A stretch of DNA of 64,000 nucleotides from Pseudomonas phage vB_PaeM_GXNNA8. The DNA lies in the sequence record PV400810.1. One strand, written 5' to 3'. Under the pieces are notes generated by a model. It did no database searches. It was not told the DNA's origin and saw only the letters and a list, made by a program, of their open reading frames with translations. Positions 3,657 to 57,771 of the stretch are shown piece by piece; the first letter of the stretch is position 1; every line of letters begins with the position of its first letter. A program made the translations under genes and the position numbers.

Positions 3657-3685
3657 CCCCTACCTCCCTTAACGGGGAGGTAGGG
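3657..3685. terminator. bidirectional hairpin between convergent genes (cccctacctccc/gggaggtagggg, 12 bp perfect stem)
   Basis: A perfect inverted repeat with a 5-nt loop lies between the 3' ends of the + gene at 2637-3644 and the - gene at 3700-6570. Confidence 0.6.
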
Positions 3686-3699
3686 GGATTCATTAAGGG

Positions 3700-6570
3700 T
3701 TAATCAATGATGTCACGTCGGGTAAAGAAGGTGTTAACCCCCAAGTTCCCGTCATCCACAAAGGTGGGAATAGCCGTACCCCGACGGGTAGAACTCACCA
3801 CATGACCACCCATCACGATGTACGAATGATCGATGGTAAGAATCCCGTTCGTTGCAATCCCAAAGAGGACTTCCGAGTTATTGACCTCTCGGCGTACGGG
3901 AGACCCCAACCCTACCAACGCATCCCCTTGGCGTACCAAATAACAGTACGTCGTTCCGGTAGGGTTGACCTTAATGGGGTATTCCTTATCCAGGATATAC
4001 GCACGACCCCTTATAACCACCCTGGATCGAGCAGGGATGCTCACCCAGCCGCTTTCATTTACGTCGTACGGATCCACCACCCCCGCTCCGCCGACCTCCA
4101 ACAGATTCGTGGAGTAGCCGGTGTTAGCAGGGTCGTACTGGTAGATTCCCTTCCGAGGGATCAAGACAGGTGGGTGAACTTCGTTCACCGTATCAAAGGG
4201 TGATGACGCCGTATACAGTTTCGCTGGATTGACCCGTCCTACGGTGTAGGTGGGTGTAAACGGGTAATCCGTGATTTTGAAACTGATATCCCCGTAGAGG
4301 TCCCCAAAGGGTCGACTGACCACAACCGCCCATTCATACCGTTGGGTTTCAATCACTTGGACATCCACGTAGGTCATCCACGGGTTATCACCGGAATGGG
4401 AATAGCGGTACGCGCCCGGTACGACCATACCTGCTGGGGTAACCGGTTTAGTAACGAAGCCCGTAGCGGAGGGGAAGTTCAGCCTAAAGACCCCACCACT
4501 CACCGTATACGGAACCACAGCAGCCTCTGCGTAACACATCCCATCGGTAATCACGACCAACGCGAAGTTATCCGCGACAGCAAAGACGTTGATCACACTT
4601 TCCCTGAGGGCGTTGTTGACTTGAGGGTTCGCGATGGCTGCACGAGCCAGAATACCCCCACTGGCGGCTTGCAGGGTAATCAAGCTGGTTGGGGAGAGTT
4701 TGACCTCAGCGCCCAACTGGACTCGTCCATTCGCCAGGGCGATTGAAGCATACCCGGTATACTGGTTATCCGGTGTGAAACACAGGGCGTTGATACTGAC
4801 TCCATCCACCAGCAGGCTAGCAAACGACGCCATAGCTCTAGGGATACGGGTCAACTCCCGATTAATAATCCCAACATCCGCTGGAACAATACCGAACTTA
4901 TTCCCAGTGGTTACACCCACAATGGAGGTGTTCGACCAGGTCAACTCACTCCACTCATACAACCCGGTTTCACTGTCAACGGAATAAGCCAGATACCGCG
5001 TGGTACCAGCGGTGTGTTCAATGGGGAATAAGCGATCAGGAACCGGCCCAAACGGGCTATGGCGTGACGGAGGATAAAACTCTGTACGAACTTCATCCAT
5101 CCCCACTTCAGCCCGTTCTCCCAACACCCATTCCCTCAAGCCTTTATGGGGGGTGGTAAATCGCTTAACCCGTAGACCGTTCTTCGTGGCGACCGCTTTA
5201 ACCACTTCCCCTGACTTCAGAACGACCCCGGGATACCAGGTCGGATTATTGAAATCCCAGGTGTTCGCGTACCGCAGCCATTTAGCATCGGCGGTGGGTA
5301 GCATATTCGGTTGAATAATGTCCTTGGCCAAATTACCCAGTTGGGTAAAGGTTGCCGTCCCTCCATTCTCCAAGGTACCCGGGGCAATGGATTCCACGAA
5401 GGAGAGGTTATACGGTCGGCGAATACCCCCTTGGACCACATTCACCGGAATAACGACAAAGAGGTAGATTTCCCGGTCTTGAATGTTCCAGAAGAGGGCT
5501 GTGGTGGGTTGCAGTCCTCCATTCATCTCCAGGGTCTGACCTGCACTCAGGGTCACAAAGTCATTAATGTCGTACGAATGACTCCCGTTAGCCGGTCCGG
5601 TATACGGTGCCTTATTGATTTGAGTAAACCGGGCGGTGTACGACGCAGTCACCTGCTCCACCAAAGTGGGATCGGTTTCCAGGAAGTTCACGTTGAAGAA
5701 ATAGTGCTTTAGGGTCAGAACCGTACCGACTCGGTCCCAGCTAATCCCCAGCCCTTTATACACCGCCGTGCTATACCCTTGATACAGCAGGAAGTTCGCA
5801 TTACTGGGGGTTAATGGGAGGGTGTTCTTGAACTCGTAGATCTTCTTCTCAGCCAGGGGTTTAAAGAAGGCTACTTTGCCCGAACTGGTAAACCCTCCTA
5901 CCGCATTCCAATTCCGTCCAGTGTAATACGCGTTGAGGTTCTGAATCTCCGAGAACTGTGTTCCCCCTGCGTTCGCCAGAGAACCAGACAGGAAGGCTGT
6001 GTACCGTTGGTAACGAGACGGATCGGTAACCGGAGACAACACCAGACGGTCATTGTTGATCATCATCCCGACATTCAGAGAGTACCCAAAATAACGAATG
6101 GGTTGAATCACTGTTGGAGCAACCACCGGGTATTCATCCGGGTTGTAGAACGACGAGAATTGGAACACGTCATTGGGTTGATAATCCGCACCGTTATAAC
6201 CGACGTTGTTGGTTACAACCGCAGCGCGAGCACCGTGAGGGGTCACATACGCCAACACAGGCGTTAGAGACTGTTGTTCCGCCAGGGTAGCCGTCCGGTA
6301 GTTGTCCTTAAGACCCAATCCAATCGTCAGTTTGGTTTCACCGTGGACCGCCCCCCGGGAATTGATGTGGGCGTCAATGGGGACAATGGCTTGGTTAATG
6401 AAATCATTCAGGTTTGCGTTGAACAACCGGATCTTTTCTTTAGTCCCCTCATTGTAGCTGTGAACACACGCTTCCAGTTTGTAGGTCATCTCATTGAGCT
6501 TGGAGATCACTCCACCGAACCTGGGTTCAGGGTTTTCGATGAAAGGGGGTTCCCCGCCAAGGATAATCAT
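3700..6570 (-). CDS. large virion protein, baseplate/tail-fibre candidate (956 aa)
   Basis: Long ORF with an ATG at 6570-6568, convergent with the spike gene and adjacent to the fibre paralogs. No catalytic motif was recognised. Confidence 0.45.
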   Translation of the reverse strand: MIILGGEPPFIENPEPRFGGVISKLNEMTYKLEACVHSYNEGTKEKIRLFNANLNDFINQAIVPIDAHINSRGAVHGETKLTIGLGLKDNYRTATLAEQQSLTPVLAYVTPHGARAAVVTNNVGYNGADYQPNDVFQFSSFYNPDEYPVVAPTVIQPIRYFGYSLNVGMMINNDRLVLSPVTDPSRYQRYTAFLSGSLANAGGTQFSEIQNLNAYYTGRNWNAVGGFTSSGKVAFFKPLAEKKIYEFKNTLPLTPSNANFLLYQGYSTAVYKGLGISWDRVGTVLTLKHYFFNVNFLETDPTLVEQVTASYTARFTQINKAPYTGPANGSHSYDINDFVTLSAGQTLEMNGGLQPTTALFWNIQDREIYLFVVIPVNVVQGGIRRPYNLSFVESIAPGTLENGGTATFTQLGNLAKDIIQPNMLPTADAKWLRYANTWDFNNPTWYPGVVLKSGEVVKAVATKNGLRVKRFTTPHKGLREWVLGERAEVGMDEVRTEFYPPSRHSPFGPVPDRLFPIEHTAGTTRYLAYSVDSETGLYEWSELTWSNTSIVGVTTGNKFGIVPADVGIINRELTRIPRAMASFASLLVDGVSINALCFTPDNQYTGYASIALANGRVQLGAEVKLSPTSLITLQAASGGILARAAIANPQVNNALRESVINVFAVADNFALVVITDGMCYAEAAVVPYTVSGGVFRLNFPSATGFVTKPVTPAGMVVPGAYRYSHSGDNPWMTYVDVQVIETQRYEWAVVVSRPFGDLYGDISFKITDYPFTPTYTVGRVNPAKLYTASSPFDTVNEVHPPVLIPRKGIYQYDPANTGYSTNLLEVGGAGVVDPYDVNESGWVSIPARSRVVIRGRAYILDKEYPIKVNPTGTTYCYLVRQGDALVGLGSPVRREVNNSEVLFGIATNGILTIDHSYIVMGGHVVSSTRRGTAIPTFVDDGNLGVNTFFTRRDIID

Positions 6571-6583
6571 AAAGCTACTCCAT

Positions 6584-6604
6584 TTAAAAGATCAGGGGGA
6601 GGTT
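6584..6604 (-). terminator. hairpin agggggag-gttta-ctccccct
   Basis: 8-bp GC stem between two minus-strand genes, with an A-run on the + side, which becomes a U-run in the minus transcript. Confidence 0.4.
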
Positions 6605-6619
6605 TACTCCCCCTTTACC

Positions 6620-9600
6620 TTAAGGTAAAAGTTCCGAGGCTTTCAAGAAGCTAAACGTACCTTCATCCTGCGGTAAACCAGAACTCACCGGAATAATCCC
6701 TCCCGTCCGTGTGTAACTTAATAGGAACTCACCGATGGTAAAGACTTTCTGCCGGGTAATACTGGCGATCTGGTTGGTGTTCGTCACGGCGGTTGCGACA
6801 TGCAGCAACTCACTGGAACGCCGCAGTTTAACATCGGAGACAATATACCGCCCTTCCGACTCTTCAACCGTCGCATAGATGTAGAACGTTTTGTTACGAG
6901 GATTCGAGGACACATTCCTCAAGTCGATAGACCCACCGGGCATTTTGTACACGGTACCGTTGATCATCATCTCGACTTCTTCTTGGAAGAAAATCGTCCA
7001 ACCCACTTCCGGGTAACAGGAACCAATCAGATACGTGTTCGCTCCGATCTTCCCTACATACCCCGCACCGCCAGTGTCCTCAAAGACGTAGCCTTGCTGT
7101 TGGGTAATTAACCCGGCTTTAGGAATGGCGTGGTTCTGCACGCACCACGCCGCGGACATTCCTTCCCCGTTGTTAAAAGGTGTAACACTGGAGAATTTCT
7201 GAGTGGTCTTATTAAGGCTGAAAGTCAGGACTGCTTTGTTGAACCCCAAGGCGTCGCCTCGGACGTTGTACAACGACGAAATACGCCCGGAGAGGGTATT
7301 CGTTGCTTCATCCACATAAAGCGACACTTGAGGACACGCCACAACATCCGCTTCTGTGTCACTCCACTCATCCCCAGCCCCACTGTTGTTCACCGTGGTG
7401 ATAAATGCGGTTTGATCAAGAATCGTAAGGTCATCAATCGGGTAGACCCCCGAGACTGGATTACCAATCACCGGTGCACAGGCCAACAGTTTACTCTTGA
7501 CCACATACCGACCCCCTTCGATGTCCCGGGTATGAACCAACACCAGCACGTAGTTCATCCGACTGAACCCTTTACCACTGACGGGATTGATCACCATCAA
7601 CTCAACCGCCCATTTCTCCCTGAGGGTATCGGGGATCAACTGGATCAGTTTATCCATGACGTTACGCTTAACACCCCAATGGCTTTCACCCTTCAGAGTA
7701 AAGGTTTGATCCCCAGCGTCCATTACCCGACTGAAGGTCCTAGGGCAGGATAACACGATCCCATTTCCTTTAGGGGCTTTAAAGGTAAACTCCCGAGGGC
7801 ATGTGGTATCGGATTCAACCCCTGAGGCCAGGTCGTCGAAATGGTTCATTCCCATTACAGAGAAACAACTGTTCCCCATTTCAATCCCTTCAGCGGTCAG
7901 GAACGCTGCACTCCCGGTTACACTGATCAGGGAAGTATTACGATCTAACCGGTTCTCGTACACCTCCGCACTGATCGGTCGAGCCGATAAGGTGGGGTAG
8001 TTGCTGTTGGTAATCCCAGGACGGACGGCGTATTCACCGCTGACCTTCCGGTAAAAAAACGACCGATTATTGTCCACAGCGCTGTCTGCCCAGAAATACT
8101 CCCCGGCAAGTTCATACCCCACTGCACTGACTCGCCCCCCGTTCTTGATAGGGTAACTGGGTGTTTCCCATTTTCCCACCCCCGAGAAGTTCGCATTGTC
8201 TGCGTGCATGTAATCCCGCAGCATCCCACTGGCGGTTACATTAGGGTTTTTGTTGAACTGCAAGCGACTAAACAACCCCGGGAAGGAGACCCTCAAGCCT
8301 AGACGTGACATCCCAACAATCACCTTATTCTCCAACAGGAGGTGACTGGAGTGATCAGAGATGTTGAAGAAGACGTCACTAATGCCTGCATAATGCACAG
8401 AGGCCGTTGAATTTTTGCTGATGATCTTGCTCAGATCAACGGTCTGTACGGGGGGTTGTTTAACCACTACGAAGGTCGCGGTTTCAGGGTTGAAATCGTA
8501 ACTGCAATCGATGTACACCCCGGTTACACGGTCCACCCCGTTGATGTTCCCAGTAAAGAACATCATCCCGAAGTAATGCATGGAACAATATTGAGGTCCT
8601 ATGTCACTGGTTTCAGAGAAGAACATCAGGGGACGTCGTTGGGATCCCTTAACCCCTTTCTTGGCCTTATAAGGCGCAAAGGTAATGGGGCCGTAGGTAC
8701 TGAATTCACCGTCTGGAGGAGCAGGGGTGAACTCAATGTAGTCAACATTGCTCTGTAAGGCCCCTGGGACGTTCGTCAGTGAGACTTTAACCCGACTGAA
8801 GGTAAGAGGCTGCCCATTCTTAATCGCGCTGAGAGGGGCCCTGTAGGCCCGTGTACGGCTATGCCCCCAACCACCCCATTGACCTTCAGTTATAGCTGTC
8901 ACAAACAAGTAGACCCAATTACCCAACGTGTGTATTTGACTCCACTCCGTTAGGCGAACCGACGTCCCCAGATCTTGGATAGCCAAATCAATGTTACACT
9001 TCACAAACACATGCGCGGAAGGATCCAGTGTGCCATTGGTCAGCGCCGCGTACACCTGGTTCGTCCCATCCCGGGTTACCATGATGATAGTCCGACCACT
9101 CCCTGTAAAGACCCGGTTAGGTACGAAGCCAATGGCCGTTAACGACGGGGGTTGGTATTTATACCCGGTGAAGGAAACGTCAGGATTCAGACTCAAATGA
9201 TTCCGAACCACGGTGTAATACAACCCTTCCGTCCGTCCGTCGTAATGAGCCCGAATAAAGACCAGGTTATCATTCAGTTCCAATACCGCTGCGCAGTCAG
9301 GAGTAACACCCCCTAACCCTTCAAACGAACCACTAATACCCGGAGGGATATAATCCGTTCCTCCAAATCGACTAATGGCAATAATCCCTGAACGCATGGA
9401 AGCCGACGTATCCGGTGTATACCCCCTGACCAGTTCCTTAACACCCAGCGTGGTACTGAAGAGGTTATCAGCCGTACCCGCCTTATCCTGTTCGGGAGTA
9501 GCTGTAGCAAAGTTATCCAGATTGCCCAGGTTAAGGTTGGTCTTCGTTTGGAGGTGAGGGGCGTTGTAATTCTTGTCGTGTTCGACAAGACGACGCATCT

Positions 9601-10201: not shown

Positions 10202-10219
10202 GGACTAAACCTTGAAAAG

Positions 10220-10252
10220 AAGGAGGGAGGGGGGTTAACCCTCTCCCTCCTT
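10220..10252 (-). terminator. imperfect GC hairpin (aaggagggag...ctccctcctt)
   Basis: Inverted repeat between the two fibre paralog genes. Confidence 0.4.
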
Positions 10253-10256
10253 GGGT

Positions 10257-16643: not shown

Positions 16644-16659
16644 CAGACGCGTGATAAAT

Positions 16660-16691
16660 CCTACCTGTAGCCCGCAAAGGCTACAGGTAGG
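16660..16691. terminator. bidirectional hairpin cctacctgtagcc-cgcaaa-ggctacaggtagg (13 bp perfect)
   Basis: Lies between the convergent o-spanin (+) and the membrane-protein gene (-). The ctacaggtagg core also occurs at 57740-57771. Confidence 0.6.
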
Positions 16692-16704
16692 ATTCCTATT
16701 GGGT

Positions 16705-24996: not shown

Positions 24997-25039
24997 CCCC
25001 TAACCCCTAGCCCCTTTAACAGGGCTAGGGGTTAGGGGT
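24997..25039. terminator. bidirectional hairpin cccctaacccctagccc / gggctaggggttagggg (17 bp perfect) flanked by A-run and T-run
   Basis: A perfect inverted repeat with a 9-nt loop, aaaaataaa upstream and tttatt downstream, sits between convergent genes. Confidence 0.7.
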
Positions 25040-25607: not shown

Positions 25608-25976
25608 GGCATTAAGACAAAAAATAAAAGGAGCGAGGGGAGGAGGAACCCACCTGCTTAGAGCCGATGGCTGTCCCTCCTCCCCTTAACTTGCTAGGTG
25701 TTCAACCAGCGCTAGTTTAGCACCTTCACAAGCCGCCTCACCGTCCGAGAACCTTCCCGCCGACAGCACCGAAAAGGAGACTGAAGTCCAGGTCAATAGC
25801 TCAACAGTGTGACTTGACGATAGCGGCTATACCGTCCATAGGGTTCGGAGTATGAGTTTTGCCAAGCTCATACTCGACGAGTACCACGCCTTATCACCCT
25901 TAAGTTCAGGCGGGACCCGCAGACGCGGATTAATATGACACGTTGTCCGTATATAATACCGTCAACGTGTTAAAAC
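25608..25976. other. 369-bp ORF-free, GC-rich, hairpin-dense region; candidate structured ncRNA or replication/regulatory element
   Basis: Stems include gaggggaggagg...cctcctcccc, ggagtatgagtt-ttgcca-agctcatactc and ccgcagacgcgg. No ORF of 60 aa or more exists on either strand. Confidence 0.3.
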
Positions 25977-26222
25977 TTACTCTCCGTAATCGAGAGTGTC
26001 GTAAACCATCGACCGAGCCACTTCGGCGATAGTGTCGTCGTCGATCAGACGATGACCGTCCTCATTGCGATCTGCTTTATTCCACGCAGAACTTTCACCG
26101 AGTGCGTTCACACATATCTTCCCCCGGTAACCCCTGGCGTCGAGGATAAGTCGAGCACGACGAATCACCTCCGTATCGAATTCCCCGTGGGTCTTGAACA
26201 CCTTAAGGTTCTTTTTAGCCAT
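25977..26222 (-). CDS. small hypothetical protein (81 aa)
   Basis: ORF only. Confidence 0.4.
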   Translation of the reverse strand: MAKKNLKVFKTHGEFDTEVIRRARLILDARGYRGKICVNALGESSAWNKADRNEDGHRLIDDDTIAEVARSMVYDTLDYGE

Positions 26223-26233: not shown

Positions 26234-27259
26234 TTAAATTGCCACTAACTCAACATGAGTCAATTGATTGAGATCGGAGGTCAGTTGCTCAGTATAGGAT
26301 ACCTGATACGCACCGCCCAGGGTATCGATGTGGAACACAACAGCATCCAAGGCCAGCTTATTCACACGACGTACTTTAACCAGGATTTGCTGATCCTCAG
26401 GCACCGTAAGTTTCACGGTCTCTTTATCGGGTGTCACAGGGGGGTAGAGGGACTCAATGAAGAGTACAGCTTTCTTAGCCTCAAAGACCTGATCAATCCA
26501 TTCACTCCCGTTATGAAGCAAACGGTAACCCTTGTCTTCAGATCCCTCAATATGGAAAAAGGGTTTGGGATGTCCTATACCCTTAGTGACCCTTACGACC
26601 TGGACGTTGATAAGACCTACACCCAATCCTCGGAAGAGTATAGTCACGTGGCCCTCTGTAGAGAATTTTGTCATGGCAATGTCTCCCTTTACGAACTCGT
26701 GGTTTTCATCCAATTGGTAAGGAACGCCAGGTTCGAGACCGTCCTCACCGATATATCCAACTGCTGTGCGGTAACGATTGGCTTCACTGTCGAAGTACTG
26801 GATGTGGATCTTTCCATTCTTTCCAGCGGACGCAACGCCATCGAGTCCAACGATAGCAGTCCCCCAATCTCCAGCGGTAGCTTTCCCTTTCTTTCCGGCG
26901 GTGGCAGTACCTAAGTATCCGACAGTAGCCGTACTGTAATTTCCGGCGGTGGCGATGCCATGGTCACCAGCGGTGGCGCTGGCGCAATCTCCGGCGATAG
27001 CCATGCCTTTATTTCCGGCAGAGGCGATACCAAAGCGTTCAACGATGGCTGTCCCATAGTCTCCAGAAACAGCGTGTCCATTGTTCGCAGCGGTGGCGAC
27101 GCTATTTTTTCCAGCGATGGCGGTCCCGTGTTCCCCCACATGGCAAGACCCGTTGTCACCGACTTGAAGGACATGACCACAGCTGGCTCGTTGAAAGGGT
27201 GTTTCTTTATGTTTCATGACCTTCTCCAAAATACAGCGATTGGGTATCCAATCTGTCAC
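26234..27259 (-). CDS. octapeptide-repeat (beta-helix-like) protein
   Basis: About 13 tandem 8-residue units of the G-x-A-x-A-G-x-x type (GTAIAGKN, GIASAGNK, GMAIAGDC, ATAGDHGI, ...), followed by a non-repetitive ~200-aa C-domain. Confidence 0.55.
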   Translation of the reverse strand: MTDWIPNRCILEKVMKHKETPFQRASCGHVLQVGDNGSCHVGEHGTAIAGKNSVATAANNGHAVSGDYGTAIVERFGIASAGNKGMAIAGDCASATAGDHGIATAGNYSTATVGYLGTATAGKKGKATAGDWGTAIVGLDGVASAGKNGKIHIQYFDSEANRYRTAVGYIGEDGLEPGVPYQLDENHEFVKGDIAMTKFSTEGHVTILFRGLGVGLINVQVVRVTKGIGHPKPFFHIEGSEDKGYRLLHNGSEWIDQVFEAKKAVLFIESLYPPVTPDKETVKLTVPEDQQILVKVRRVNKLALDAVVFHIDTLGGAYQVSYTEQLTSDLNQLTHVELVAI

Positions 27260-27392
27260 TCTCGGTAGCTTAAAGGCTAAACGGCTTATTAAGCAAACCG
27301 CCCGGGTTCTACCGAAAACCCGTTTAAGAAGGGTTGGAGACTACACGTGTGATTTAACGGCGTTTACGTGAGTCCCCTCCTTCACGCAGGGG

Positions 27393-27896
27393 TTATTCCT
27401 TTAAAGACAGAGTGGAGTGGTCTTCAGGTTCAGGGGCATGCAGTACTTCAATGCAACGAAAGACAGCGAATGTAGCGTTATTCTCCGCCCTTAACCTTTT
27501 AGCTTCCGTAATAGCTTTTGCTCTGGAGGAATGTCGGTAAGGTCGAGGTGACATATACACGACACCATTTTCACCTACCCTCCCAATAACGTAACGTCCA
27601 ATCGGGTTGGTATAGTGTTCTTGAGTGACGTTATTTTGGAACAGTACGTTATTGTGATAAAATTTGAACCCTCTGAACATCCAGAGGGTTCTCTTATCTT
27701 TGTATTTCCCTTCCTGGTCCTTCTCCAGGTAGATCTCCGCTTTGTTTGTACCCATCACTGGCTGAAGATGTTTTTTCTTCATATGAAACTCAAACTCTTC
27801 ACGCAGATTGAGTTTCATATCCTCAGTAACCTTACGGTGATCGTTAGGAGAAGGGGGAGGTGTTTCATTTTGAATTATTCGATCGGTCACTTTCAC
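27393..27896 (-). CDS. hypothetical protein (167 aa)
   Basis: Has a 4-nt ATGA overlap with the upstream gene, suggesting translational coupling. Confidence 0.5.
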   Translation of the reverse strand: MKVTDRIIQNETPPPSPNDHRKVTEDMKLNLREEFEFHMKKKHLQPVMGTNKAEIYLEKDQEGKYKDKRTLWMFRGFKFYHNNVLFQNNVTQEHYTNPIGRYVIGRVGENGVVYMSPRPYRHSSRAKAITEAKRLRAENNATFAVFRCIEVLHAPEPEDHSTLSLKE

Positions 27897-29392: not shown

Positions 29393-29422
29393 TGGTTTAT
29401 TCCTCGTGGCTTAATACATCAA

Positions 29423-29440
29423 TAATCTAGGTTTAAAATA
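29423..29440 (-). promoter_or_regulatory. promoter-like 18-mer, copy 2 (minus-strand sense ATTTTAAACCTAGATTAT)
   Basis: Lies 30 nt upstream of the ATG at 29392 and immediately downstream of hairpin 29448-29482. Confidence 0.5.
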
Positions 29441-29447: not shown

Positions 29448-29482
29448 CCGTAATAAACCCTCCTACCTCCCTTCAAAGGGAG
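29448..29482 (-). terminator. hairpin ccctcctacctccctt / aagggaggtaggaggg (16 bp perfect)
   Basis: A perfect inverted repeat follows gene 29513-29809. Confidence 0.6.
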
Positions 29483-29512
29483 GTAGGAGGGTATTTACAC
29501 GGTGTTTACGGG

Positions 29513-29846: not shown

Positions 29847-29883
29847 CCTGTTCCCTACCCCTCTGAGAAAGGTAGGGAACAGG
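29847..29883 (-). terminator. hairpin cctgttccctacc-(11 nt)-ggtagggaacagg (13 bp perfect)
   Basis: Sits in the non-coding island beside the tRNA. A second hairpin, ccatcctg...caggatgg, lies at about 29906-29936. Confidence 0.5.
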
Positions 29884-30026: not shown

Positions 30027-30102
30027 TGGTTCCGTGACCAGGGTTCGAACCCGGGACCTACTGTTTACGAAACAGTTGCTCTACCTACTGAGCTATCACG
30101 GA
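30027..30102 (-). tRNA. tRNA-Thr (anticodon CGU), 76 nt with genomically encoded CCA
   Basis: The reverse complement folds as a canonical cloverleaf. Acceptor TCCGTGA/TCACGGA is 7 bp. D-arm is GCTC-AGTAGGTA-GAGC. Anticodon arm is ACTGT-TTCGTAA-ACAGT, giving U33 and C34-G35-U36. The variable loop is 5 nt. T-arm is CCGGG-TTCGAAC-CCTGG. Discriminator A is followed by CCA. Confidence 0.85.
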
Positions 30103-30443
30103 GTAAACTTAACCTAAATGGATCACCACGATTTCAGTTCCAAAGGTGTCAGCCACCCATTGGTTGAAGTCTTTACGCTTGAGTCCACAGTAGGAGAAAA
30201 TAACAGACGAAATTCTACCGGGCGAACCAGTCCAACAAACCGTATTCGTTCATTGTGTTTTTCTTCCAGTGTTACACTTGAATCGAAAGGGGGTCCGTTC
30301 GCCATTGTCATACCTATTCACCCCATCACAAGGAATAGATAGACCTGTACTGTTTTATGCTCTCGGCCACGGACGACTGCGAGTAACCGCTAAGGGTTAC
30401 TGTTACGAGAGCACCCCTTACAAGGGAAAGATTACGGAAACGA

Positions 30444-32376: not shown

Positions 32377-32874
32377 CTAGTTACGGGGTTTTACAGCGAT
32401 AACTTCGAATGCTTCACCGATAGGCTTGTCAGCGTAGAGGGCTCCCAACGGAACGTTAACGTCGAAGTATTTACCAAAAAGGTGAACGAATTCATCCGCT
32501 CCAAAGGTAAACCCCTTATTCTCTCCATTACACACGTTGATTTCCTCCCCACGGAAATCATAGACCCGCCTGGGAGTAACGAGGATAGCGCGTTGTTCCG
32601 CATCCGCAATCAGGCTTTGCCATCCTTCAAGGGTCAAATGGCAGGGGAGGGTCGTCAGTGAATACGCCGCTTTCATGCGTTCGGGGTTGGGTTTCTTGTA
32701 GAACACCGCACAGAGAATCGGTTGGCCTTCAATGGTCGATTCAAACGGGCAGGTGTAAAAGAAGTCGCCCTTTTGGATGTCATTGGTTACCAGCGCGTAC
32801 TGGCGATGACGAATCAACATACATAGAGTTTTTCTAGCCATTACAAATTCCTTGACTACTGAAATAACTACCAA
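32377..32874 (-). CDS. hypothetical protein (probable start MARKTLC... near 32838)
   Basis: ORF only. Confidence 0.45.
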   Translation of the reverse strand: MVVISVVKEFVMARKTLCMLIRHRQYALVTNDIQKGDFFYTCPFESTIEGQPILCAVFYKKPNPERMKAAYSLTTLPCHLTLEGWQSLIADAEQRAILVTPRRVYDFRGEEINVCNGENKGFTFGADEFVHLFGKYFDVNVPLGALYADKPIGEAFEVIAVKPRN

Positions 32875-32910
32875 CAGAGGCCCTGTGAGGCCTCTGTTGA
32901 ATGATTGTCT

Positions 32911-34629: not shown

Positions 34630-34650
34630 CCGGTAGGTTATCCCTACCGG
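34630..34650 (-). terminator. hairpin ccggtagg-ttatc-cctaccgg
   Basis: 8-bp perfect stem after gene 34669-35136. Confidence 0.45.
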
Positions 34651-35535: not shown

Positions 35536-35559
35536 AGTCTCCCCTAAGGAGGGGAGACT
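35536..35559 (-). terminator. hairpin agtctcccc-taagga-ggggagact
   Basis: 9-bp perfect stem between minus-strand genes. Confidence 0.45.
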
Positions 35560-36007: not shown

Positions 36008-36096
36008 GGTATTTCCCTATGTGAAAAATGAAAGAGACGTAAAGAACCCGCCTCCTCATCCCTCTTAAACAGGACAAGGAAGCGGGGGTGGGTTCT

Positions 36097-36294: not shown

Positions 36295-36336
36295 AAAAGA
36301 AGAGGAGAAGGGATAACCTTCTCCTTGGAACAGACG

Positions 36337-36693: not shown

Positions 36694-36825
36694 GGGTGAG
36701 TCCTCGTTCGTGTGTAGGAAATGGGGAGTAAAACAGTTAACAACTAATAGGATTGTTGCTATTCACCCTGATTATTTAGATCTGAAAATAACTGTAAGTT
36801 AAATAAATAAACCAATAAGGAATAC

Positions 36826-36855
36826 CTACCCTAGTGGAGATCCACTAGGGTAGGT
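36826..36855 (-). terminator. 30-bp perfect palindrome cctaccctagtggaGATCtccactagggtagg
   Basis: Fully self-complementary and centred on GATC. It lies downstream of gene 36892-39237. Confidence 0.55.
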
Positions 36856-40901: not shown

Positions 40902-42053
40902 TCAGGAAGTACATAGTTTATACCCCGCAGCAAACACGGTTGCAATCGCCCCGATCGCCTTAGCCACTTCTCCCCAGTTGTTAGCGCTGGCCCGTTGGCG
41001 GGTGAACTCCAGATTCGCCTTACTCAAGGTCTTGTCCATTTCACTCCGTACTTTGGTCGCATCATTGTTGATTTGCAGCCGATTCACCTCCAGTTGACGT
41101 TCATTTCTCGCTTGCATGAGTTCCAACCGATGAGCACTTTTGAGGTGGGTCAGCTCGATACCCAACTCAACACTCTTACGGACATTCTCGTCTACCAAGT
41201 CCTTCAGTTTGGAAATCTCGTTATTGGCTGAACTCAGTTGTTTATTCAGTTCAACCACTTTCTTCTCGGCAGTCATTGCCCGTTCTGTATTACCCCCCAT
41301 TTCGCATTCCGCTTTGGTCTTAAAGATACCCAGGAAACCCAGGGTTTCATCGCAGAGATGGTCAAAGGTGTAGAATAGCTTCTTCGGTAGTGAATTACCG
41401 TAGGCCAATCCCACATACAACCCATGATCTTTATTCATCTCCCTGACCGTAGGGACCATTACCGCTTTACCCATGACATTGGTGTACAACGGGTTTTGAA
41501 CACTCAGGGGATCGTTCAGATACACGTAGTAATGAAGACCTCCCGGCTCATCACTCTCACTGATCCCCCACTTCATCAGGTCATTGAGGGTGTAGTCTGG
41601 CGTATTCAGGGGATAGAGATCGCTGGTATTCTCTTCCCGGTTATACAACGTGATACCGAGGATATCACTGTGGATCGGTTCACCTTCCAGGTCTTCAACC
41701 ACATCCCTGTTCAGTTTGATCGTGACGCCGAAGTCATGATACTGCCGAATGTCCACGTGCGACTCTTTGCTCGACACAAAGCTCAGGTGAGCTTGGATCT
41801 TATCAATCAACAGACGATCGAATTTACTCCGCGCTGCTGACTTATCAAAACTGAAATCACCGACATACAGACGATCGAATTTGATGTCAATCATCGCCCC
41901 GGGATACCACGAAGCCTCTAGCGGTTTGCGAATAAGGTAACTCAATCCCCCTTTCGCTTTGACAATAATCTGTTTGCTGCTCATATTAGTGATATCATAA
42001 GTCAGCCGGAAATGCCGGTAGGGTGAAACATCATTCATGGTGAGGATCCTCAA
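40902..42053 (-). CDS. protein with a C-terminal coiled coil and a terminal hydrophobic segment (383 aa; ATG at 42038 more likely than TTG at 42053)
   Basis: Heptad-like region KVVELNKQLSSANNEISKLKDLVDEN...LEVNRLQINND with terminal AIGAIATVFAAGYKLCTS. The + strand reads caa at 42051-53, so the listed start is a TTG. Confidence 0.55.
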   Translation of the reverse strand: MRILTMNDVSPYRHFRLTYDITNMSSKQIIVKAKGGLSYLIRKPLEASWYPGAMIDIKFDRLYVGDFSFDKSAARSKFDRLLIDKIQAHLSFVSSKESHVDIRQYHDFGVTIKLNRDVVEDLEGEPIHSDILGITLYNREENTSDLYPLNTPDYTLNDLMKWGISESDEPGGLHYYVYLNDPLSVQNPLYTNVMGKAVMVPTVREMNKDHGLYVGLAYGNSLPKKLFYTFDHLCDETLGFLGIFKTKAECEMGGNTERAMTAEKKVVELNKQLSSANNEISKLKDLVDENVRKSVELGIELTHLKSAHRLELMQARNERQLEVNRLQINNDATKVRSEMDKTLSKANLEFTRQRASANNWGEVAKAIGAIATVFAAGYKLCTS

Positions 42054-42110
42054 GTTAGTGTCAAGATCATCTGGTGCGCGGTCAGATAACCTATTGTCTT
42101 GTACCCAAGG

Positions 42111-42128
42111 ATAATGTAGGTTTAAAAT
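42111..42128 (-). promoter_or_regulatory. promoter-like 18-mer, copy 3 (ATTTTAAACCTACATTAT)
   Basis: Sits immediately downstream of hairpin 42160-42193 and about 72 nt upstream of the ATG at 42038. Confidence 0.5.
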
Positions 42129-42159
42129 ATTCCAATAAACGGTATAACTGCAAATATAA

Positions 42160-42193
42160 CCCTACCCACTCCCCGTTAAGGGAGTGGGTAGGG
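42160..42193 (-). terminator. hairpin ccctacccactccc-cgttaa-gggagtgggtaggg (14 bp perfect)
   Basis: Directly follows the codon-optimised probable capsid gene. Confidence 0.65.
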
Positions 42194-42270
42194 CTAATGG
42201 TACACGCAATTTCCGTGAGGTACCTACTAAGGCAGCTCTGGATACTCAAGCCGCCCGTAATTCGCAGGAC

Positions 42271-46702: not shown

Positions 46703-46738
46703 CCCCTACCCCCTAGCCTGAGAGCTAGGGGGTAGGGG
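46703..46738. terminator. bidirectional hairpin cccctaccccctagc-ctgaga-gctagggggtagggg (15 bp perfect)
   Basis: Lies between the convergent helicase (+) and the ParB-like (-) genes. Confidence 0.65.
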
Positions 46739-47856: not shown

Positions 47857-47874
47857 GTAATATAGGTTTGATTT
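47857..47874 (-). promoter_or_regulatory. promoter-like 18-mer, variant copy 4 (AAATCAAACCTATATTAC)
   Basis: Matches the consensus at 14 of 17 positions. It lies downstream of hairpin 47904-47930 and 43 nt upstream of the ATG at 47814. Confidence 0.4.
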
Positions 47875-47903: not shown

Positions 47904-47930
47904 CCCTACCTAAGCTCAGCTTAGGTAGGG
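47904..47930 (-). terminator. hairpin ccctacctaagct...agcttaggtaggg
   Basis: Inverted repeat after gene 47981-48421. Confidence 0.5.
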
Positions 47931-50362: not shown

Positions 50363-51093
50363 AGTAATCCTGTCGGTTTATTGAACAACCAAGGACCGAG
50401 ATCCTCAGGTGTATCATGCGTGGCTAAACTATCCGCTACAGCTTTGTTCGTGATATACGGCTGTTCACTGAGTGAGAGACCCGGGTTCAACGTATCGTCC
50501 CCGAAGAGTTCATCCAAATGACTGACGAAACTGATCTCAGCTTTGGGGGTTCCCATGGCGTTGATACTAAACAGCGCTGACAACTGCATTAGGTTCCGTT
50601 TATCGGTCTCTTGAACATCACCCCCCAGTTCCCGTAGTTTCTTCTTATCCAAGTACGGTTTAATCCGTTTGTAGAAGTTAAAGAGGGTATACGCCAGGAG
50701 TTCCAGCTTACGAAGTTCATCAATGGAGGGTGTTGGAAACTCCGGTGCTTTCTTAAAGAGTTCACACCAGAGACAAATGTACTCCTGAATGGATTCGTAG
50801 ATCAACGGAATCACAATCTGAGGTTCCCTGAATCCCAAATCCTTCTCACTGGACAAGTTAGGCAGGATATCGATGATCCTGGGAACACTCATCCGTCGAA
50901 CTTGGTATTCGTTGTAGTAATTCGGATCTCCAACGAACCCCTCCTGGGAGTATTCTTCCCGATCCCGGAGTTCTTCCAAACTCATGAGCATTGCGGGCGT
51001 TACCCACACATCGAAGGACCGGTTATTCAGAATGTTGTAGAGTTCGATTAGTCGGGTGCGTATGGTGTTATACCGACTTAAGGGCATGCTCAT
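50359..51093 (-). CDS. hypothetical protein (244 aa)
   Basis: Translationally coupled with both neighbours. Confidence 0.55.
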   Translation of the reverse strand: MSMPLSRYNTIRTRLIELYNILNNRSFDVWVTPAMLMSLEELRDREEYSQEGFVGDPNYYNEYQVRRMSVPRIIDILPNLSSEKDLGFREPQIVIPLIYESIQEYICLWCELFKKAPEFPTPSIDELRKLELLAYTLFNFYKRIKPYLDKKKLRELGGDVQETDKRNLMQLSALFSINAMGTPKAEISFVSHLDELFGDDTLNPGLSLSEQPYITNKAVADSLATHDTPEDLGPWLFNKPTGLL

Positions 51094-52385: not shown

Positions 52386-52400
52386 GGTTTCATTTCCTTC

Positions 52401-53909: not shown

Positions 53910-53920
53910 GATGTGGTCTA

Positions 53921-53951
53921 GGAGGGAGAGGGGTTCCCCCCTTCTCCCTCC
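53921..53951 (-). terminator. imperfect GC hairpin ggagggaga-gggg-ttc-cccc...tctccctcc
   Basis: Inverted repeat between minus-strand genes. Confidence 0.4.
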
Positions 53952-53968
53952 CCAGTACCAGACGTTGG

Positions 53969-54724
53969 TTATTCCGGGTCTACGTCACCGGGCGATGGTT
54001 GGGGATCTTCTTCCCCTTCGGAACGGTACCGAATAAACAGATGAGGACCCTCCTCAAGCTTAATGATCACCAAGCCTGAGAAACAATCCGATACGTTATC
54101 GATCAGTTCTCCCCCTTTCAACCGATCCACCGTAACCGACTGGATCTTAACGGAGTTCAGGTAATCCACCACCTGCTGACAGAAAGTGTCAGACAACCGA
54201 GACCGGTTCTCCGTAAAGAGGTTCCCATTCCCCTGGAAGATTTTAGAACTTAACGCCATCTGGAGACGAGGGGTATCCAAGTCGGTGGCTTTAAGAATCC
54301 CTGAAGGCCCTAAGCGGGCTTTATTGAGCAGTTTAAGGATCAGGCGCCCTTTCCACAGGATACTGGTCGGAGCGATCTCCAGGGTGACCATCTGGAAAGG
54401 AGAAGGTGCATTCTTGGGCAGGTCTACTTTCCCTTCTGGAACCGTATAGTCCACCCCTTCCACGAGGAAGAGTTTAAACGTGTTACTGAGCCGTTTAAAC
54501 ACCTGAGCCAACGGTTCTTGGTCAGCCACCGGGAGCTCAGGAATACTGACCCCCATGTAATCCCCAATATCCTTCTTTGGAATAGGGAGTATGGTTTCGT
54601 CGTTATTCAACTGAACCACCACATACCCGACGTCTTCATCTCCAGGTTGAGTACCCAGGATAACGCTGTCTTTGGGCAGCTGTGTTTGGATCTGTTCCAA
54701 GACACGTGGATGGAGTGTTTTCAT
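53969..54724 (-). CDS. hypothetical protein (251 aa)
   Basis: ORF only. Confidence 0.5.
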   Translation of the reverse strand: MKTLHPRVLEQIQTQLPKDSVILGTQPGDEDVGYVVVQLNNDETILPIPKKDIGDYMGVSIPELPVADQEPLAQVFKRLSNTFKLFLVEGVDYTVPEGKVDLPKNAPSPFQMVTLEIAPTSILWKGRLILKLLNKARLGPSGILKATDLDTPRLQMALSSKIFQGNGNLFTENRSRLSDTFCQQVVDYLNSVKIQSVTVDRLKGGELIDNVSDCFSGLVIIKLEEGPHLFIRYRSEGEEDPQPSPGDVDPE

Positions 54725-56193
54725 GTGTTCGTACCCCCAGTGTTCCCACCCTCTTTAATAAAGATGTGGGGTGTAATACCTTTAATGGCTTTACGAAGAC
54801 CTTTAACCAACTTATCGTGCTCACCAATCTTCTTCTTGGCCTCCGCAACGGCTTCTTTAGCAGCTTTAACCGTTTCCTGTACTGCTGCCTTAGCCGCACT
54901 AACCGCTTCTTTGTCTTCATCATTCCCACTGGTCTGCTGAGAGGCTTTCCTCAATTCAGCCAGGGTGGTATCAACCGCTTTCTTATCAGCCCGGAGTTTC
55001 TCACCGTTGACTTCTTCTTTCTTAAGAAGACCCAACAGTCCATCGATTACACCCCCTACGTCCGTGGGTGTCCGAAGCCGATTCACAACCTGAGACATTG
55101 CCCCAGAGACATCCACCTTCTCCGCTAGGGTCTTAATCCCCTCACGTGCCTTGTCGTTGATGCTGACATTCTTGGTGGGCATGGATTGGACCGCTTTCTT
55201 ATTGTCCTCCCCAGTCTTTGCTACGGCATCGTTGTCGGCTTTCTCTTTCTCAGACGACTCGTACCAAGCTTTCAGTTGTTCCCAGCCACTCAAAGCCGCT
55301 TGGTAGGCGTTCCGAGCAACCGCTTTAATGGAGTCAAAGACTTGACCCTCACTCCCTTCAATGGAACGGAGTTTAACCCCGTTCATTTCAGCAACAGTCA
55401 TGAAATAATCACGGTCGGTGCTTTGAATACCATCCAGGTAATCTTCCAGACCCTGGAGAACATGCAATGGGTGGTCGAGCACACACCCGCATTCACAGGT
55501 ATCACCTCCCGCACACTCCAACCCAGGAACCCCCCAATGATTGACCTCAATCGGATGGAGGTAGGTGTAGTCCATCGGCGCATACTCTTCCAAGCCCGCC
55601 AACAGCCCCTGACGAGAGGTTACGAAGATGTCCACCAAACTCAGAATCTTGTCAATGTATTCCAGTTTACGCGCGGTAGCGGAATACACTTCAGCTGGGG
55701 TGAGCTTCAGACTATCCTCATCCTGTTCCAGCAGGTAATTGACCAACCCTTTACCCTTGCTGATCAGTGCACCTACTCCTTCCGCCTCCGTAAATGCACC
55801 ACCCTTATTCCCCAACGAACAAATCAGCATGGAAATGTCCCGAGGGAATTGATAGATTCCGTTCTCAATACTACTCAGGGTTTCCTTCAGGTAACGGTCC
55901 AGGACAGCATTCACTTTCAACTCACTGGCGTCGTAATAGTCAAACTCACGACTGATAATATTCAGTGTGTTGACAATCTGACCCATGATGTGTTCTTCAG
56001 TTAATTGACTAATCCCATGTTTCTCCAGGTAGCTAATCAATTCAGGGGTCTTCTCCTCGGAGAGAACGTCCTTACCCACTTCCCCCAGGATCATCCCCAG
56101 CAAACCTAAACGATAGGCTGCGTTCATCATCGTCCCCTTACTTAACCTTAACGGTGACATTACCCTTGTAAATCGTCGAGTAACGTGCGTCAA
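54721..56193 (-). CDS. hypothetical protein with a Cys cluster (CAGGDTCECGC) and a Lys/Ala-rich C-terminus; true start probably the internal Met near 56130
   Basis: The listed 5' end overlaps the upstream gene by 56 nt. Confidence 0.55.
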   Translation of the reverse strand: MTHVTRRFTRVMSPLRLSKGTMMNAAYRLGLLGMILGEVGKDVLSEEKTPELISYLEKHGISQLTEEHIMGQIVNTLNIISREFDYYDASELKVNAVLDRYLKETLSSIENGIYQFPRDISMLICSLGNKGGAFTEAEGVGALISKGKGLVNYLLEQDEDSLKLTPAEVYSATARKLEYIDKILSLVDIFVTSRQGLLAGLEEYAPMDYTYLHPIEVNHWGVPGLECAGGDTCECGCVLDHPLHVLQGLEDYLDGIQSTDRDYFMTVAEMNGVKLRSIEGSEGQVFDSIKAVARNAYQAALSGWEQLKAWYESSEKEKADNDAVAKTGEDNKKAVQSMPTKNVSINDKAREGIKTLAEKVDVSGAMSQVVNRLRTPTDVGGVIDGLLGLLKKEEVNGEKLRADKKAVDTTLAELRKASQQTSGNDEDKEAVSAAKAAVQETVKAAKEAVAEAKKKIGEHDKLVKGLRKAIKGITPHIFIKEGGNTGGTNT

Positions 56194-56623
56194 TTATGAG
56201 AGTGTCGTTAACCAGGCCCAAGTCGACTTCGTGACGGTAGAGACCGGGTAACCCTACAAAACTCCGCCAGAGTTCAAAGTACGTGGTATGAGGATCATCC
56301 TCCTTGAGGACGAGGGGGGTGCTGGGTTGAACAATCGGTTCCTGTTCCTCTGGGATCACCCCCAGCTTTTCCTGGAGAAGACTCACAACGATCTCAGGCG
56401 TTTCCTTATAAGTCACCTGGCTAATGTCCTGGGGAATCCCCTTTAGGAACTCTCCGAGATCCAAGCGTTCAATCAGGACACCCTGACGCAGTTCTCCATG
56501 GGGGATGTATTTGAACACCGCATCGTTAACCCTCGTAGTAATCCCAAACCGAGGGTTAATGTCAGTGTAACCACCCAATGCGGCTTTCACCACAACAGAT
56601 TGATTCAATAAGCTAAGCTGCAT
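56138..56623 (-). CDS. hypothetical protein (161 aa)
   Basis: ORF only. Confidence 0.5.
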   Translation of the reverse strand: MQLSLLNQSVVVKAALGGYTDINPRFGITTRVNDAVFKYIPHGELRQGVLIERLDLGEFLKGIPQDISQVTYKETPEIVVSLLQEKLGVIPEEQEPIVQPSTPLVLKEDDPHTTYFELWRSFVGLPGLYRHEVDLGLVNDTLIIDARYSTIYKGNVTVKVK

Positions 56624-56628
56624 AGCCT

Positions 56629-57696
56629 TTAGCTCCTTCTCTTCACAGCGGCTTCCAACACCGCGTAAACAGCGTTAGCACTCCGGTACACTTCCGTCTC
56701 CATGACTTTAAGACTCGCCATGGCATTACGAATCACGGCTTTCATTTCCTTGATGACAACCTGAGCTTCAGGAGACGCCTCTTTAACGTTCAGACTTGCC
56801 ATTAACGCCGTTACAAAGTCATTCTCCAACGAATGGACCTTAGTGTTCATGTCCTTGAGGGATTCTGTTAGACGATTGTGCTTGACCAGGAGTTCACGTA
56901 CCTGGGAGACATTGGTCTTAAAGGTCGCGTTCTTCACTCGATCATTCGACAAGACACCCAGTTCCCGCGTCAGGTTAATCGTCACGTCCACGGTGTTCTT
57001 ACCCACGACCAGGTCATCTTTAAACACCAGTGTGGCTTCCTGGTTCGCATTCACCCCTAACAGACCCTTAACCTCTTGGTAGAAGGCATTCCCCTTGGTA
57101 CTGAATTCCGTGTATTTCGAATGGTCAATCAGACGACCCAATTCCTTACAGAAGTTCCCTACACTCGAACTGTACCGTTCAATCGTCTTAATCCCACGCT
57201 CAATATCCCCGATGACGGTACCTACCCACCCCACATTCGACGGTAACCTGCCCGTTTTAGGGAAGATATAAAAGGCGGCTTTGGGATACGGAATGTCATC
57301 CTCCCGTACACCGTTGGCTTTAAGAGCGACCTCCAGTTCATCTCCTTTGTCTTTCAGGGCTTTCCCTTTGGTCCCAAAGAAACTCCAGATCCACTTAAAG
57401 AAATCCTTAACCACTTGAATGAGTTTACCGATACCGTGTTTAACGGAATCAATAAACCCCTCAGTACCGGTCGAAGCAGTCAACCGATTCTGATGTCGGT
57501 GGAGAACGTAGTTGTAGACACTTTCTAATCCACTGATCTTGTCGTTCTCTCTGGAGAGTGCAACCATAGTCGTTTCGTCGTTGACTAGATCATAACCCTC
57601 CCTATCCTCCTCATACTCTTCATACACCGTCGGTGAATTCACGTATCGGAGGGGTGCTACAGGATGCGTATTCATCGTTAACAACCTAATAGTCAA
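56629..57696 (-). CDS. hypothetical protein (355 aa)
   Basis: ORF only. Confidence 0.55.
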   Translation of the reverse strand: MTIRLLTMNTHPVAPLRYVNSPTVYEEYEEDREGYDLVNDETTMVALSRENDKISGLESVYNYVLHRHQNRLTASTGTEGFIDSVKHGIGKLIQVVKDFFKWIWSFFGTKGKALKDKGDELEVALKANGVREDDIPYPKAAFYIFPKTGRLPSNVGWVGTVIGDIERGIKTIERYSSSVGNFCKELGRLIDHSKYTEFSTKGNAFYQEVKGLLGVNANQEATLVFKDDLVVGKNTVDVTINLTRELGVLSNDRVKNATFKTNVSQVRELLVKHNRLTESLKDMNTKVHSLENDFVTALMASLNVKEASPEAQVVIKEMKAVIRNAMASLKVMETEVYRSANAVYAVLEAAVKRRS

Positions 57697-57739
57697 GTTG
57701 AGTACATAGCATCGAAATTACAGTATTGCGACATAAAGG

Positions 57740-57771
57740 CTACAGGTAGGGGGATATCCCCCTACCTGTAG
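57740..57771 (-). terminator. hairpin ctacaggtaggggg-atat-ccccctacctgtag (14 bp perfect)
   Basis: Directly follows the second codon-optimised gene. Confidence 0.65.

Follow-up and report, generated by a model that had tools for sequence, protein, structure and literature searches.

We analysed 64,000 nucleotides (nt) of Pseudomonas phage vB_PaeM_GXNNA8 (sequence record PV400810.1), a stretch referred to below as the window, in which a family of GC-rich hairpins built on the words CCTACC and GGTAGG lies between the genes. The window is the reverse complement of ~68.6-132.6 kb of the Pseudomonas aeruginosa jumbo phage EL (Elvirus, phiKZ-like) and shows 97-98% identity to EL as well as to seven further isolates of the EL type. 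Its genes were mapped by transferring the EL gene map, and the open reading frame (ORF) numbers used here are therefore EL-derived; coding sequence fills about 92% of the window, and the minus strand holds most of the genes. The hairpins are very probably the transcription terminators (3'-end-forming RNA stem-loops) of this EL-type, phiKZ-like jumbo phage, and they are a lineage-specific form of the terminator motif that has been mapped experimentally in phiKZ and 201phi2-1, a relationship missed by the first-pass annotation of the window. The class of terminator is already known; the dialect of the EL branch, its depth and its CTAC grammar appear to be the new part.

Eleven hairpins with CCTACC or CCCTA and four of a GGAGGGAG/CTCCCTCC type had been listed in that annotation, and all 15 are present, with coordinates that are exact or a few bases off (Table 1). 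Further members of the family lie at 32872, 36303 and 36047-36086. The 15 sites fold with free energies of -17.1 to -41 kcal/mol and z-scores of -2.6 to -7.9. Their description as perfect stems of 8-17 base pairs (bp) holds in general and fails at 29847-29883, where 16 of 18 positions are paired. The words generally stand in the arms as described, with inverted polarity at 57740 and 34630 (GGTAGG in the 5' arm) and with CCCTA but no CCTACC at 24997; an identical 11-mer, CTACAGGTAGG, does occur at both 16657 and 57740. Siting is generally intergenic, except that the hairpin at 29847 lies inside annotated ORF096, ~145 nt 3' of a tRNA gene; ORF096 is a dubious small ORF that may not be a real gene. 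An unbiased census (perfect stems of at least 8 bp, loops of at most 10 nt) returned 28 inverted repeats in the window. The stem reaches 12 bp or more in nine of these, compared with none in 40 dinucleotide shuffles; all nine are intergenic and eight contain CCTACC/GGTAGG. At 10 bp or more, 14 stems were found against 0.5 in the shuffles. The pattern CCTACC-N(0-30)-GGTAGG matches eight times, with 0.21 matches expected. CCTACC and GGTAGG together number 21 in the 4,868 non-coding nt of the window and 29 in its 59,132 coding nt; this ninefold higher non-coding density means that the words are not equally frequent in coding sequence, the outcome that had been named as speaking against the family. 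Stems in the window begin 4-74 nt past stop codons, and four stand between convergent genes.

Table 1. Hairpins, promoter-like motifs and the tRNA gene of the window (positions are those of the window; energies are folding free energies).
Position	Strand	Feature	Context and remarks
3657..3686	.	Bidirectional terminator hairpin CCCCTACCTCCC-ttaacg-GGGAGGTAGGGG	Convergent ORF117 (+)/ORF116 (-), stops 12 and 13 nt away; -28.1 kcal/mol; identical in EL
6594..6614	-	Short G-first terminator hairpin AGGGGGAG-gttta-CTCCCCCT	5 nt past ORF115 stop; phiKZ-like (CTC/GAG type); -17.1 kcal/mol
10220..10252	-	G-first terminator hairpin, then CUUUU	4 nt past ORF114 stop; -23.7 kcal/mol
16657..16694	.	Bidirectional terminator hairpin AATCCTACCTGTAGCC-cgcaaa-GGCTACAGGTAGGATT	Convergent ORF110 (+)/ORF109 (-); -31.6 kcal/mol
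24997..25038	.	Bidirectional terminator hairpin, 17-bp stem CCCCTAACCCCTAGCCC	Convergent ORF103 (+)/ORF102 (-); -41 kcal/mol; canonical hairpin plus T tract; loop inverted relative to EL
29457..29492	-	Terminator hairpin ACCCTCCTACCTCCCTT, then TTATTACGG, then promoter-like motif	20 nt past ORF097 stop; -33.3 kcal/mol
29847..29883	-	Imperfect CCCTACC hairpin	~145 nt 3' of tRNA-Thr, within ORF096; -30.3 kcal/mol; EL form has U.G wobble pairing on the transcribed strand only
32872..32899	-	Terminator hairpin without CCTACC	11 nt past ORF089 stop; loop inverted relative to EL
34630..34650	-	Short hairpin CCGGTAGG-ttatc-CCTACCGG, inverted polarity	18 nt past ORF086 stop; -19.7 kcal/mol
35536..35559	-	Terminator hairpin AGTCTCCCCT-aagg-AGGGGAGACT	16 nt past ORF084 stop; -17.7 kcal/mol
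36047..36086	-	Imperfect hairpin, G.U pairs valid on minus strand only, then T-rich tail	10 nt past ORF083 stop
36303..36325	-	Hairpin AGGAGAAGG-gataa-CCTTCTCCT, then CTTCTTTTTT	11 nt past ORF082 stop
36824..36855	-	Terminator hairpin ACCTACCCTAGTGGA	36 nt past ORF081 stop; -27.2 kcal/mol; syntenic site +7650, CCTAC kept in most lineages
42157..42196	-	Major capsid gene (ORF078) terminator CCCUACCCACUCCC-UUAACG-GGGAGUGGGUAGGG (transcribed strand), then UUAUAUUUGC	-35.5 kcal/mol; syntenic to phiKZ T057
46703..46738	.	Bidirectional terminator hairpin CCCCTACCCCCTAGC	Convergent helicase gene ORF076 (+)/ORF075 (-); -35.9 kcal/mol; syntenic to phiKZ T054
47904..47930	-	Terminator hairpin CCCTACCTAAGCT, then GGTGTTATACC and promoter-like motif	50 nt past ORF073 stop; -25.6 kcal/mol
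53921..53951	-	G-first hairpin GGAGGGAGAGGGG...CCCTTCTCCCTCC	18 nt past ORF067 stop; -29.1 kcal/mol
57740..57771	-	Terminator hairpin CTACAGGTAGGGGGAT/ATCCCCCTACCTGTAG, inverted polarity, then CCTTTATG	31 nt past ORF063 stop; -30 kcal/mol
42111..42123; copies 101-113, 29422-29434, 47857-47869	- (all)	Promoter-like motif (T-rich)-AAACCTACATTAT	'Putative phage promoter' in EL record; 42111 copy downstream of capsid-gene terminator
30027-30102	-	tRNA-Thr (anticodon CGU)	Rfam 69 bits; ARAGORN

The same anatomy recurs throughout the complete EL genome, from which strong intergenic hairpins were collected at a free energy of -14 kcal/mol or lower. This set comprises 49 hairpins (29 tandem and 16 convergent), most of them 4-30 nt past a stop codon. 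Their arms are segregated into G and C (index 0.59 vs 0.34 in the control). Polarity is uneven in a larger set of 167 hairpins, with 90 C-first and 33 G-first. T accounts for 49% of the first 10 nt that follow the EL hairpins in the direction of transcription, and TTAT lies within 14 nt downstream on 31 of 64 transcribed-sense sides but on only 3 of 32 non-transcribed sides, with a background of 4%. Convergent sites carry TTAT on both sides (7/16 and 6/16), whereas at tandem sites it is found on the transcribed side in 18 of 29 cases and on the other side in 3 of 29, a distribution which indicates that TTAT is part of the terminator and not of a downstream promoter. The A-run and T-run flanks previously ascribed to the window hairpins are in fact T-rich or TTAT sequences, the longest T-run being 2-4 nt in 30 of 31 tandem sites; the earlier proposal that the hairpins are terminators, bidirectional between convergent genes, is supported.

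The closest experimental counterpart comes from phiKZ, in which ONT-cappable-seq identified 133 termination sites, 61 of them sharing the motif BCCYCCCCHWWDGGGRRGGBYTTATKYYGT (Putzeys et al., 2024; PMC10914365). This consensus reads as a C-rich arm, a loop, a G-rich arm and then TTAT. The same motif (motif A) is present at 59 of 132 sites in 201phi2-1, and eight 201phi2-1 terminators are active in uninfected P. chlororaphis, several of them beating lambda T0 (PMC11512511). Our census of phiKZ 100-150 kb recovers the published type, for example GCCCTCCC-ttcg-GGGAGGGC-tttatg, with stems of 8-9 bp. Two window hairpins are syntenic to mapped phiKZ terminators: the post-capsid hairpin at 42157-42196 corresponds to T057, the 3' end of which lies at 120,629, 8 nt beyond the stem and within TTTATGTT, and which is classed as intrinsic; the post-helicase hairpin at 46703-46738 corresponds to T054 (bioRxiv 10.1101/2023.10.13.562163 supplement). 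The 3' ends at these two orthologous sites are experimental. The EL elements resemble the phiKZ motif and motifs A and B of 201phi2-1 in being intergenic and just past stop codons, in the C-rich 5' arm, the G-rich 3' arm and the stable tetraloop, in the TTAT or T-rich tract on the transcribed strand and in bidirectional use at convergent genes; EL and phiKZ further share syntenic hairpins after the capsid and helicase genes and a conserved promoter after the capsid-gene hairpin. They differ in that EL stems are 12-18 bp long, compared with 8-9 bp in phiKZ, and in that EL arms contain TA steps (CCTACC, CCCTA, TAACC) whereas phiKZ arms consist of C and T only (CCYCCCC); CTAC occurs in merely 4 of the 32 phiKZ hairpins of the census. 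The GGAGGGAG/CTCCCTCC group of the window is a phiKZ-like flavour of the same terminator grammar.

The grammar can be followed well beyond EL. Outside the EL group, the nearest relatives are Erwinia phage Joad, with 57% capsid identity, and Shewanella phage FishSpeaker, with 46%; their post-gene hairpins contain the same words and even the UUAACG loop. Among 37 IMG/VR loci with 51-67% capsid identity, 136 strong hairpins were found, with CTAC in 57 and CCTACC in 29. Three syntenic sites were chosen without ascertainment, by distance from the capsid gene start alone (-2250, +2300 and +7650), and a hairpin of -18 to -42 kcal/mol is present there in nearly all of the 37 IMG/VR relatives and in Joad and FishSpeaker. 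The stems at these sites differ between lineages yet are fully compensated, the loops are UUCG, GNRA or UAAC tetraloops on the transcribed strand, and a canonical T-run follows the hairpin in several lineages. At site +7650 the base and the upper stem vary around invariant CCTAC columns, and three base pairs have undergone 6, 5 and 2 double changes. Near the position syntenic to 53921, upstream of the capsid gene, relatives carry G-first hairpins of the GGAGG-taacc-CCTCC type. The dialect reaches Klebsiella phage Miami, Vibrio phage Aphrodite1 and OBP, and the Miami record annotates the same hairpins as terminators. Structure, position, the strand-specific TTAT element and deep synteny with compensated stems are direct observations. 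The hexaloop UUAACG, which on the transcribed strand is a UAAC tetraloop closed by U.G, occurs in terminator hairpins of five phage genera: at window positions 3669-3674 and 42174-42179, in Joad (L008:27793), FishSpeaker (L009:22243), Miami (L050:15936) and Aphrodite1 (L049:24003).

At short range, all 18 sites are common to the window phage and EL. The two differ at 7 of 476 stem positions, mostly beside the loop, at 35 of 1440 flanking positions and at 11 of 83 loop positions; purifying selection on the stems is not demonstrable over this distance (1.5% in stems vs 2.4% in flanks, p = 0.28). The sole mid-stem change, at 29856, gives a U.G wobble on the transcribed strand only. Seven of the 11 loop differences are accounted for by two exact loop inversions, at 24997 and 32872, in which the loops (window 25014-25021 and 32883-32888) are exact reverse complements between very close relatives and the stems are unaltered. 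Examples of such inversion are CTTTAACA versus TGTTAAAG and tttgcg versus cgcaaa, and the same flip-flop is seen among IMG/VR loci, between L017 and L018 (~19.2 kb / 12.0 kb), L020 and L021 (~17.6 kb) and L021 and L022 (~20.1 kb). Exact reverse complements within unchanged stems indicate frequent DNA-level spacer inversion of the palindromes, and spacer inversion explains most of the apparent 'hypervariability' of the loops. The inversions themselves imply arm recombination or template switching in DNA and, together with the perfection of the palindromes and the SbcD-like nuclease encoded by EL, might suggest that the elements function as DNA, as cruciforms or protein-binding palindromes for replication, recombination or packaging. 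We consider such a function very improbable, because TTAT is strand-specific and tracks the direction of transcription, the tetraloops and G.U pairs are found on the transcribed strand only and the hairpins lie strictly past stop codons.

The sequence relatedness of the hairpins had also been taken as a hint of descent from a repeated element similar to the repetitive extragenic palindromic (REP) sequences of bacteria, in which GTAG is the conserved head. REP-like or miniature inverted-repeat transposable element (MITE)-like elements, or recent intragenomic copies made by transposition or gene conversion, could explain the long words common to some pairs of hairpins (13 nt at EL 64717/90533 and 11 nt at 74965/115896), and EL does encode a transposase-like gene. 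The CCTACC-type hairpins are, moreover, clustered in the EL genome, where 9 of 12 hairpins in the window segment (68.6-132.6 kb) are of this type compared with 8 of 37 elsewhere (Fisher p = 0.0014); gene class or timing, or gene conversion on a local scale, may lie behind this clustering. The elements also resemble REPs and bacterial interspersed mosaic elements (BIMEs), which are associated with RAYT transposases, in being short multicopy intergenic palindromes with GTAG/CTAC, often between convergent genes. In EL-type phages, however, the word lies inside the stem at variable positions (offsets of 0-10 nt) and not as a fixed head outside the palindrome, and the sites are ancient, shared in full with EL and syntenic across relatives at 51-67% capsid identity. 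Words of at least 8 nt are shared by 4.6% within EL and by 3.1% between EL and distant relatives (both ~10x the shuffled expectation), and words of at least 10 nt by 0.51% and 0.52%, respectively, so that no within-genome excess of similarity exists. No RAYT (Y1) transposase is present among the annotated transposases of EL, which comprise gp037 only, the whole proteome not having been scanned; gp037 itself (EL 41045-42187, L003, outside the window), annotated 'transposase', is TnpB-like, with OrfB_IS605, Cas12f1-like TNB and HTH domains. A REP-like or mobile origin was rejected on the grounds of synteny, the lack of insertion polymorphism, the lack of an annotated RAYT and the about equal sharing of words within and between genomes, and is highly unlikely to account for the family. 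Nor does word sharing support the view that the similarity arose mainly by recent duplication or gene conversion within the genome, although occasional gene conversion may underlie the few long shared words (the 13-mer and the 11-mer). What the hairpins have in common is a grammar of the whole clade, seen in EL, Joad, FishSpeaker, Miami, Aphrodite1 and OBP, and not a mobile repeat.

That the relatedness exceeds what stem stability requires, as first proposed from the window alone, is borne out by the words themselves. CCTACC/GGTAGG occurs in 17 of the 49 EL arms, whereas composition-shuffled arms give 1.3 (maximum 7 in 5000 shuffles), which rules out arm composition alone as the cause; the minimal shared word, CTAC, is found in 24 of the 49 against 4.9 expected. 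The 5' arm contains CTAC 76 times and GTAG 16 times. C-rich arms contain CTAC 60 times but CATC and CAAC once each, and CTC 76 times but CAC 10 times. Stem stability fails as an explanation, since the stacking energies of CTAC and CATC are equal. Back-up stop codons (TAG or TAA in the arms) are ruled out by their even distribution over the three frames (30/28/30). Mimicry of a promoter core, suggested by the CCTAC common to AAACCTACATTAT, is unsupported because promoter core and hairpin dialect do not vary together: the cores of Miami, Aphrodite1 and phiKZ are CTAT, yet CTAC persists in the hairpins of Miami and Aphrodite1. Across 124 G-rich arms, no dinucleotide is as strongly depleted as TG (52 vs 156 expected, z = -13) and none as strongly enriched as TA (188 vs 70 expected, z = +18), and NTG codons number 30 where 130 are expected and the minimum over 2000 shuffles is 106. 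No description of the dialect, its phylogenetic depth or this TG-avoiding CTAC grammar was found in the accessible literature, which did not include the EL genome paper (Hertveldt, 2005).

Two accounts of the word go beyond termination, and we regard both as possible but unlikely. In the first, the word is a by-product of purging start codons (NTG) or TATG-like promoter cores from G-rich arms that resemble Shine-Dalgarno sequences. In a C-free arm such a purge requires every T to precede A, which yields GTAG, GTTAG and GGTA, and the depletion of TG and NTG, the enrichment of TA and the preference for CTC and CTAC over CAC, CATC and CAAC all agree with it. The arms are, on the other hand, locked in very stable stems to which minimal ribosome access is expected; start-codon avoidance predicts neither the additional depletion of GA (ratio 0.62) nor the enrichment of AG; and phiKZ arms are openly Shine-Dalgarno-like (GGGAGGG). 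In the second, which we rate no higher, the CCUACC/GGUAGG box is a recognition element, beside or instead of intrinsic termination, for a phage-encoded factor conserved in the EL/Joad/Miami/Aphrodite/OBP branch, candidate readers being an RNA polymerase (RNAP) subunit, an (anti)termination factor, a protein of the phage nucleus that binds or exports RNA, or a processing nuclease. Conservation of the word across phages of Pseudomonas, Erwinia, Shewanella, Klebsiella and Vibrio, the invariance of the CCTAC columns at site +7650 while the upper stem turns over, the lopsided word counts and arm polarity despite equal stacking energies and the recurrence of the UUAACG loop in five genera would all fit such an element. 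It is harder to reconcile with a word whose position varies (mostly 0-8 nt from the stem base), which is found in only ~35-45% of hairpins while equivalent positions hold hairpins without it, and with the tolerance of loop inversions; no candidate protein has been identified, and a generic rule against the dinucleotide TG fits the data about as well. The fuller form of this idea, in which the CUAC/GUAG box and the UUAACG loop together are a signal read by a conserved factor of these nucleus-forming jumbo phages, is somewhat less likely again. If it is true, the terminator hairpins would be dual-purpose, with a subunit of the sigma-less RNAP enforcing or tuning termination or an RNA-binding protein marking mRNA 3' ends for stability or for export out of the phage nucleus.

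The interpretation that we favour, termination at these hairpins, would proceed as follows. A very stable RNA hairpin would be transcribed a few nucleotides past the stop codon and the transcript released in the T-rich, TTAT-containing tract just 3' of the stem. Termination would involve the multisubunit RNAPs of the phage itself and, probably, bacterial-type RNAPs of any kind. The perfect palindromes of the stems would let copies between convergent genes work in both directions. The shared sequence would represent a terminator grammar inherited at syntenic sites and kept by selection, consisting of a 5' arm rich in C and nearly devoid of G, a G-rich 3' arm with almost no TG, interruptions that are nearly always T or TA (CTAC/GTAG, hence CCTACC/GGTAGG) and stable tetraloops (UUCG, GNRA or UAAC) on the transcribed strand. 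Termination in EL itself, the identity of the terminating polymerase and the reason for the grammar are what we infer from these comparisons. With canonical Rho-independent terminators the hairpins share a location at gene ends, a GC-rich stem-loop and a T-rich tract behind it, with full U-runs at the orthologous sites of relatives; they differ in the EL-type U tract, where other bases often break in (TTAT, TATTTGC) and T-runs measure 2-4 nt, and in their unusually long and perfect stems, the strong segregation of G and C between the arms and their non-random words.

Several observations weigh against this interpretation. Only about half of the sites pass the canonical rule of at least five T in 8 nt and the T-runs are short; in the window, 24997, 29847, 32872, 36303 and 36824 are flagged by this rule and 29457, 34630 and 42157 fall narrowly below it. 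The literal phiKZ consensus BCCYCCCCHWWDGGGRRGGBYTTAT, with at most three mismatches, has zero matches in the window, and the EL dialect is accordingly related but distinct. The strong word preference (the ratio of CTAC to CATC and the deficit of TG) is unexplained by the mechanism of termination as currently understood, and transcript 3'-end data for EL or its close relatives were not found in the accessible literature. Finally, the 3' ends obtained from phiKZ by ONT-cappable-seq cannot by themselves separate termination from processing. The hairpins might then be RNA-stability or processing elements, with read-through, a cut in the A/U-rich TTAT tract and trimming back to the protective stem; the U tracts are weak, and a TTAT single strand beside a stem resembles the sites of endoribonucleases. 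We nevertheless consider processing an improbable alternative, less so than a DNA-level or mobile origin, since 201phi2-1 terminators of the same type cut reporter expression in uninfected cells to an extent at least equal to that of lambda T0 (PMC11512511), canonical U-runs are present at orthologous sites in several relatives and ARNold classes the phiKZ counterparts as intrinsic terminators.

A promoter-like motif accompanies some of the terminators. The AAACCTACATTAT motif is probably an early (virion RNAP) promoter, and the copy 3' of the capsid-gene terminator is identical at 13 of 13 positions in relatives at 51-67% capsid identity. This module of a hairpin and then a promoter after the capsid gene is kept from EL to phiKZ, where the promoter core is TCTATATTAC. 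The arrangement recalls the promoter-early stem-loop (PeSL) cassettes of T4-type phages reportedly described by Arbiol, Comeau and Krisch in 2010, in that window positions 29457, 42157 and 47904 pair a stem-loop with a conserved promoter of the early type. It differs in that there is no sign here of modules flanking shuffled gene cassettes and in that most hairpins have no adjacent promoter motif.

Some further features of the window were recorded. About 345 nt of EL (part of ORF095) are replaced by ~28 nt, with local differences at 27217-27893 and 30211-30239; the segment 27.9-30.2 kb is just 94% identical to EL, ORF098 shows 76% amino-acid identity, and a gap in the EL-derived gene map is filled by an extra ORF of 167 amino acids at 27393-27896 on the minus strand. 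The tRNA-Thr gene of the window is also present in EL (L002:1947-2022) and is unannotated in either GenBank record. In the Rfam scan only a tRNA reached the gathering score, and no curated RNA family matches the hairpins. An inverted repeat of the same purine/pyrimidine theme with a long loop, AGGGGAGGAGGAAC / GTCCCTCCTCCCCT with a 23-nt spacer, lies at 25636-25686, at the start of ORF102 and the edge of a 320-nt non-coding stretch (25655-25977).

The jumbo phages of the phiKZ group transcribe their genes with their own sigma-less multisubunit RNAPs inside a protein 'nucleus'. The EL branch possesses a distinct and deeply conserved dialect of the phiKZ terminator motif which goes beyond stem thermodynamics in its CTAC rule and its avoidance of TG, and this dialect provides a concrete sequence variable for termination assays. 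The hairpins also offer Pseudomonas synthetic biology a ready source of strong terminators, often bidirectional ones, and their recognition allows better annotation of EL-like genomes, which are now without terminator features.

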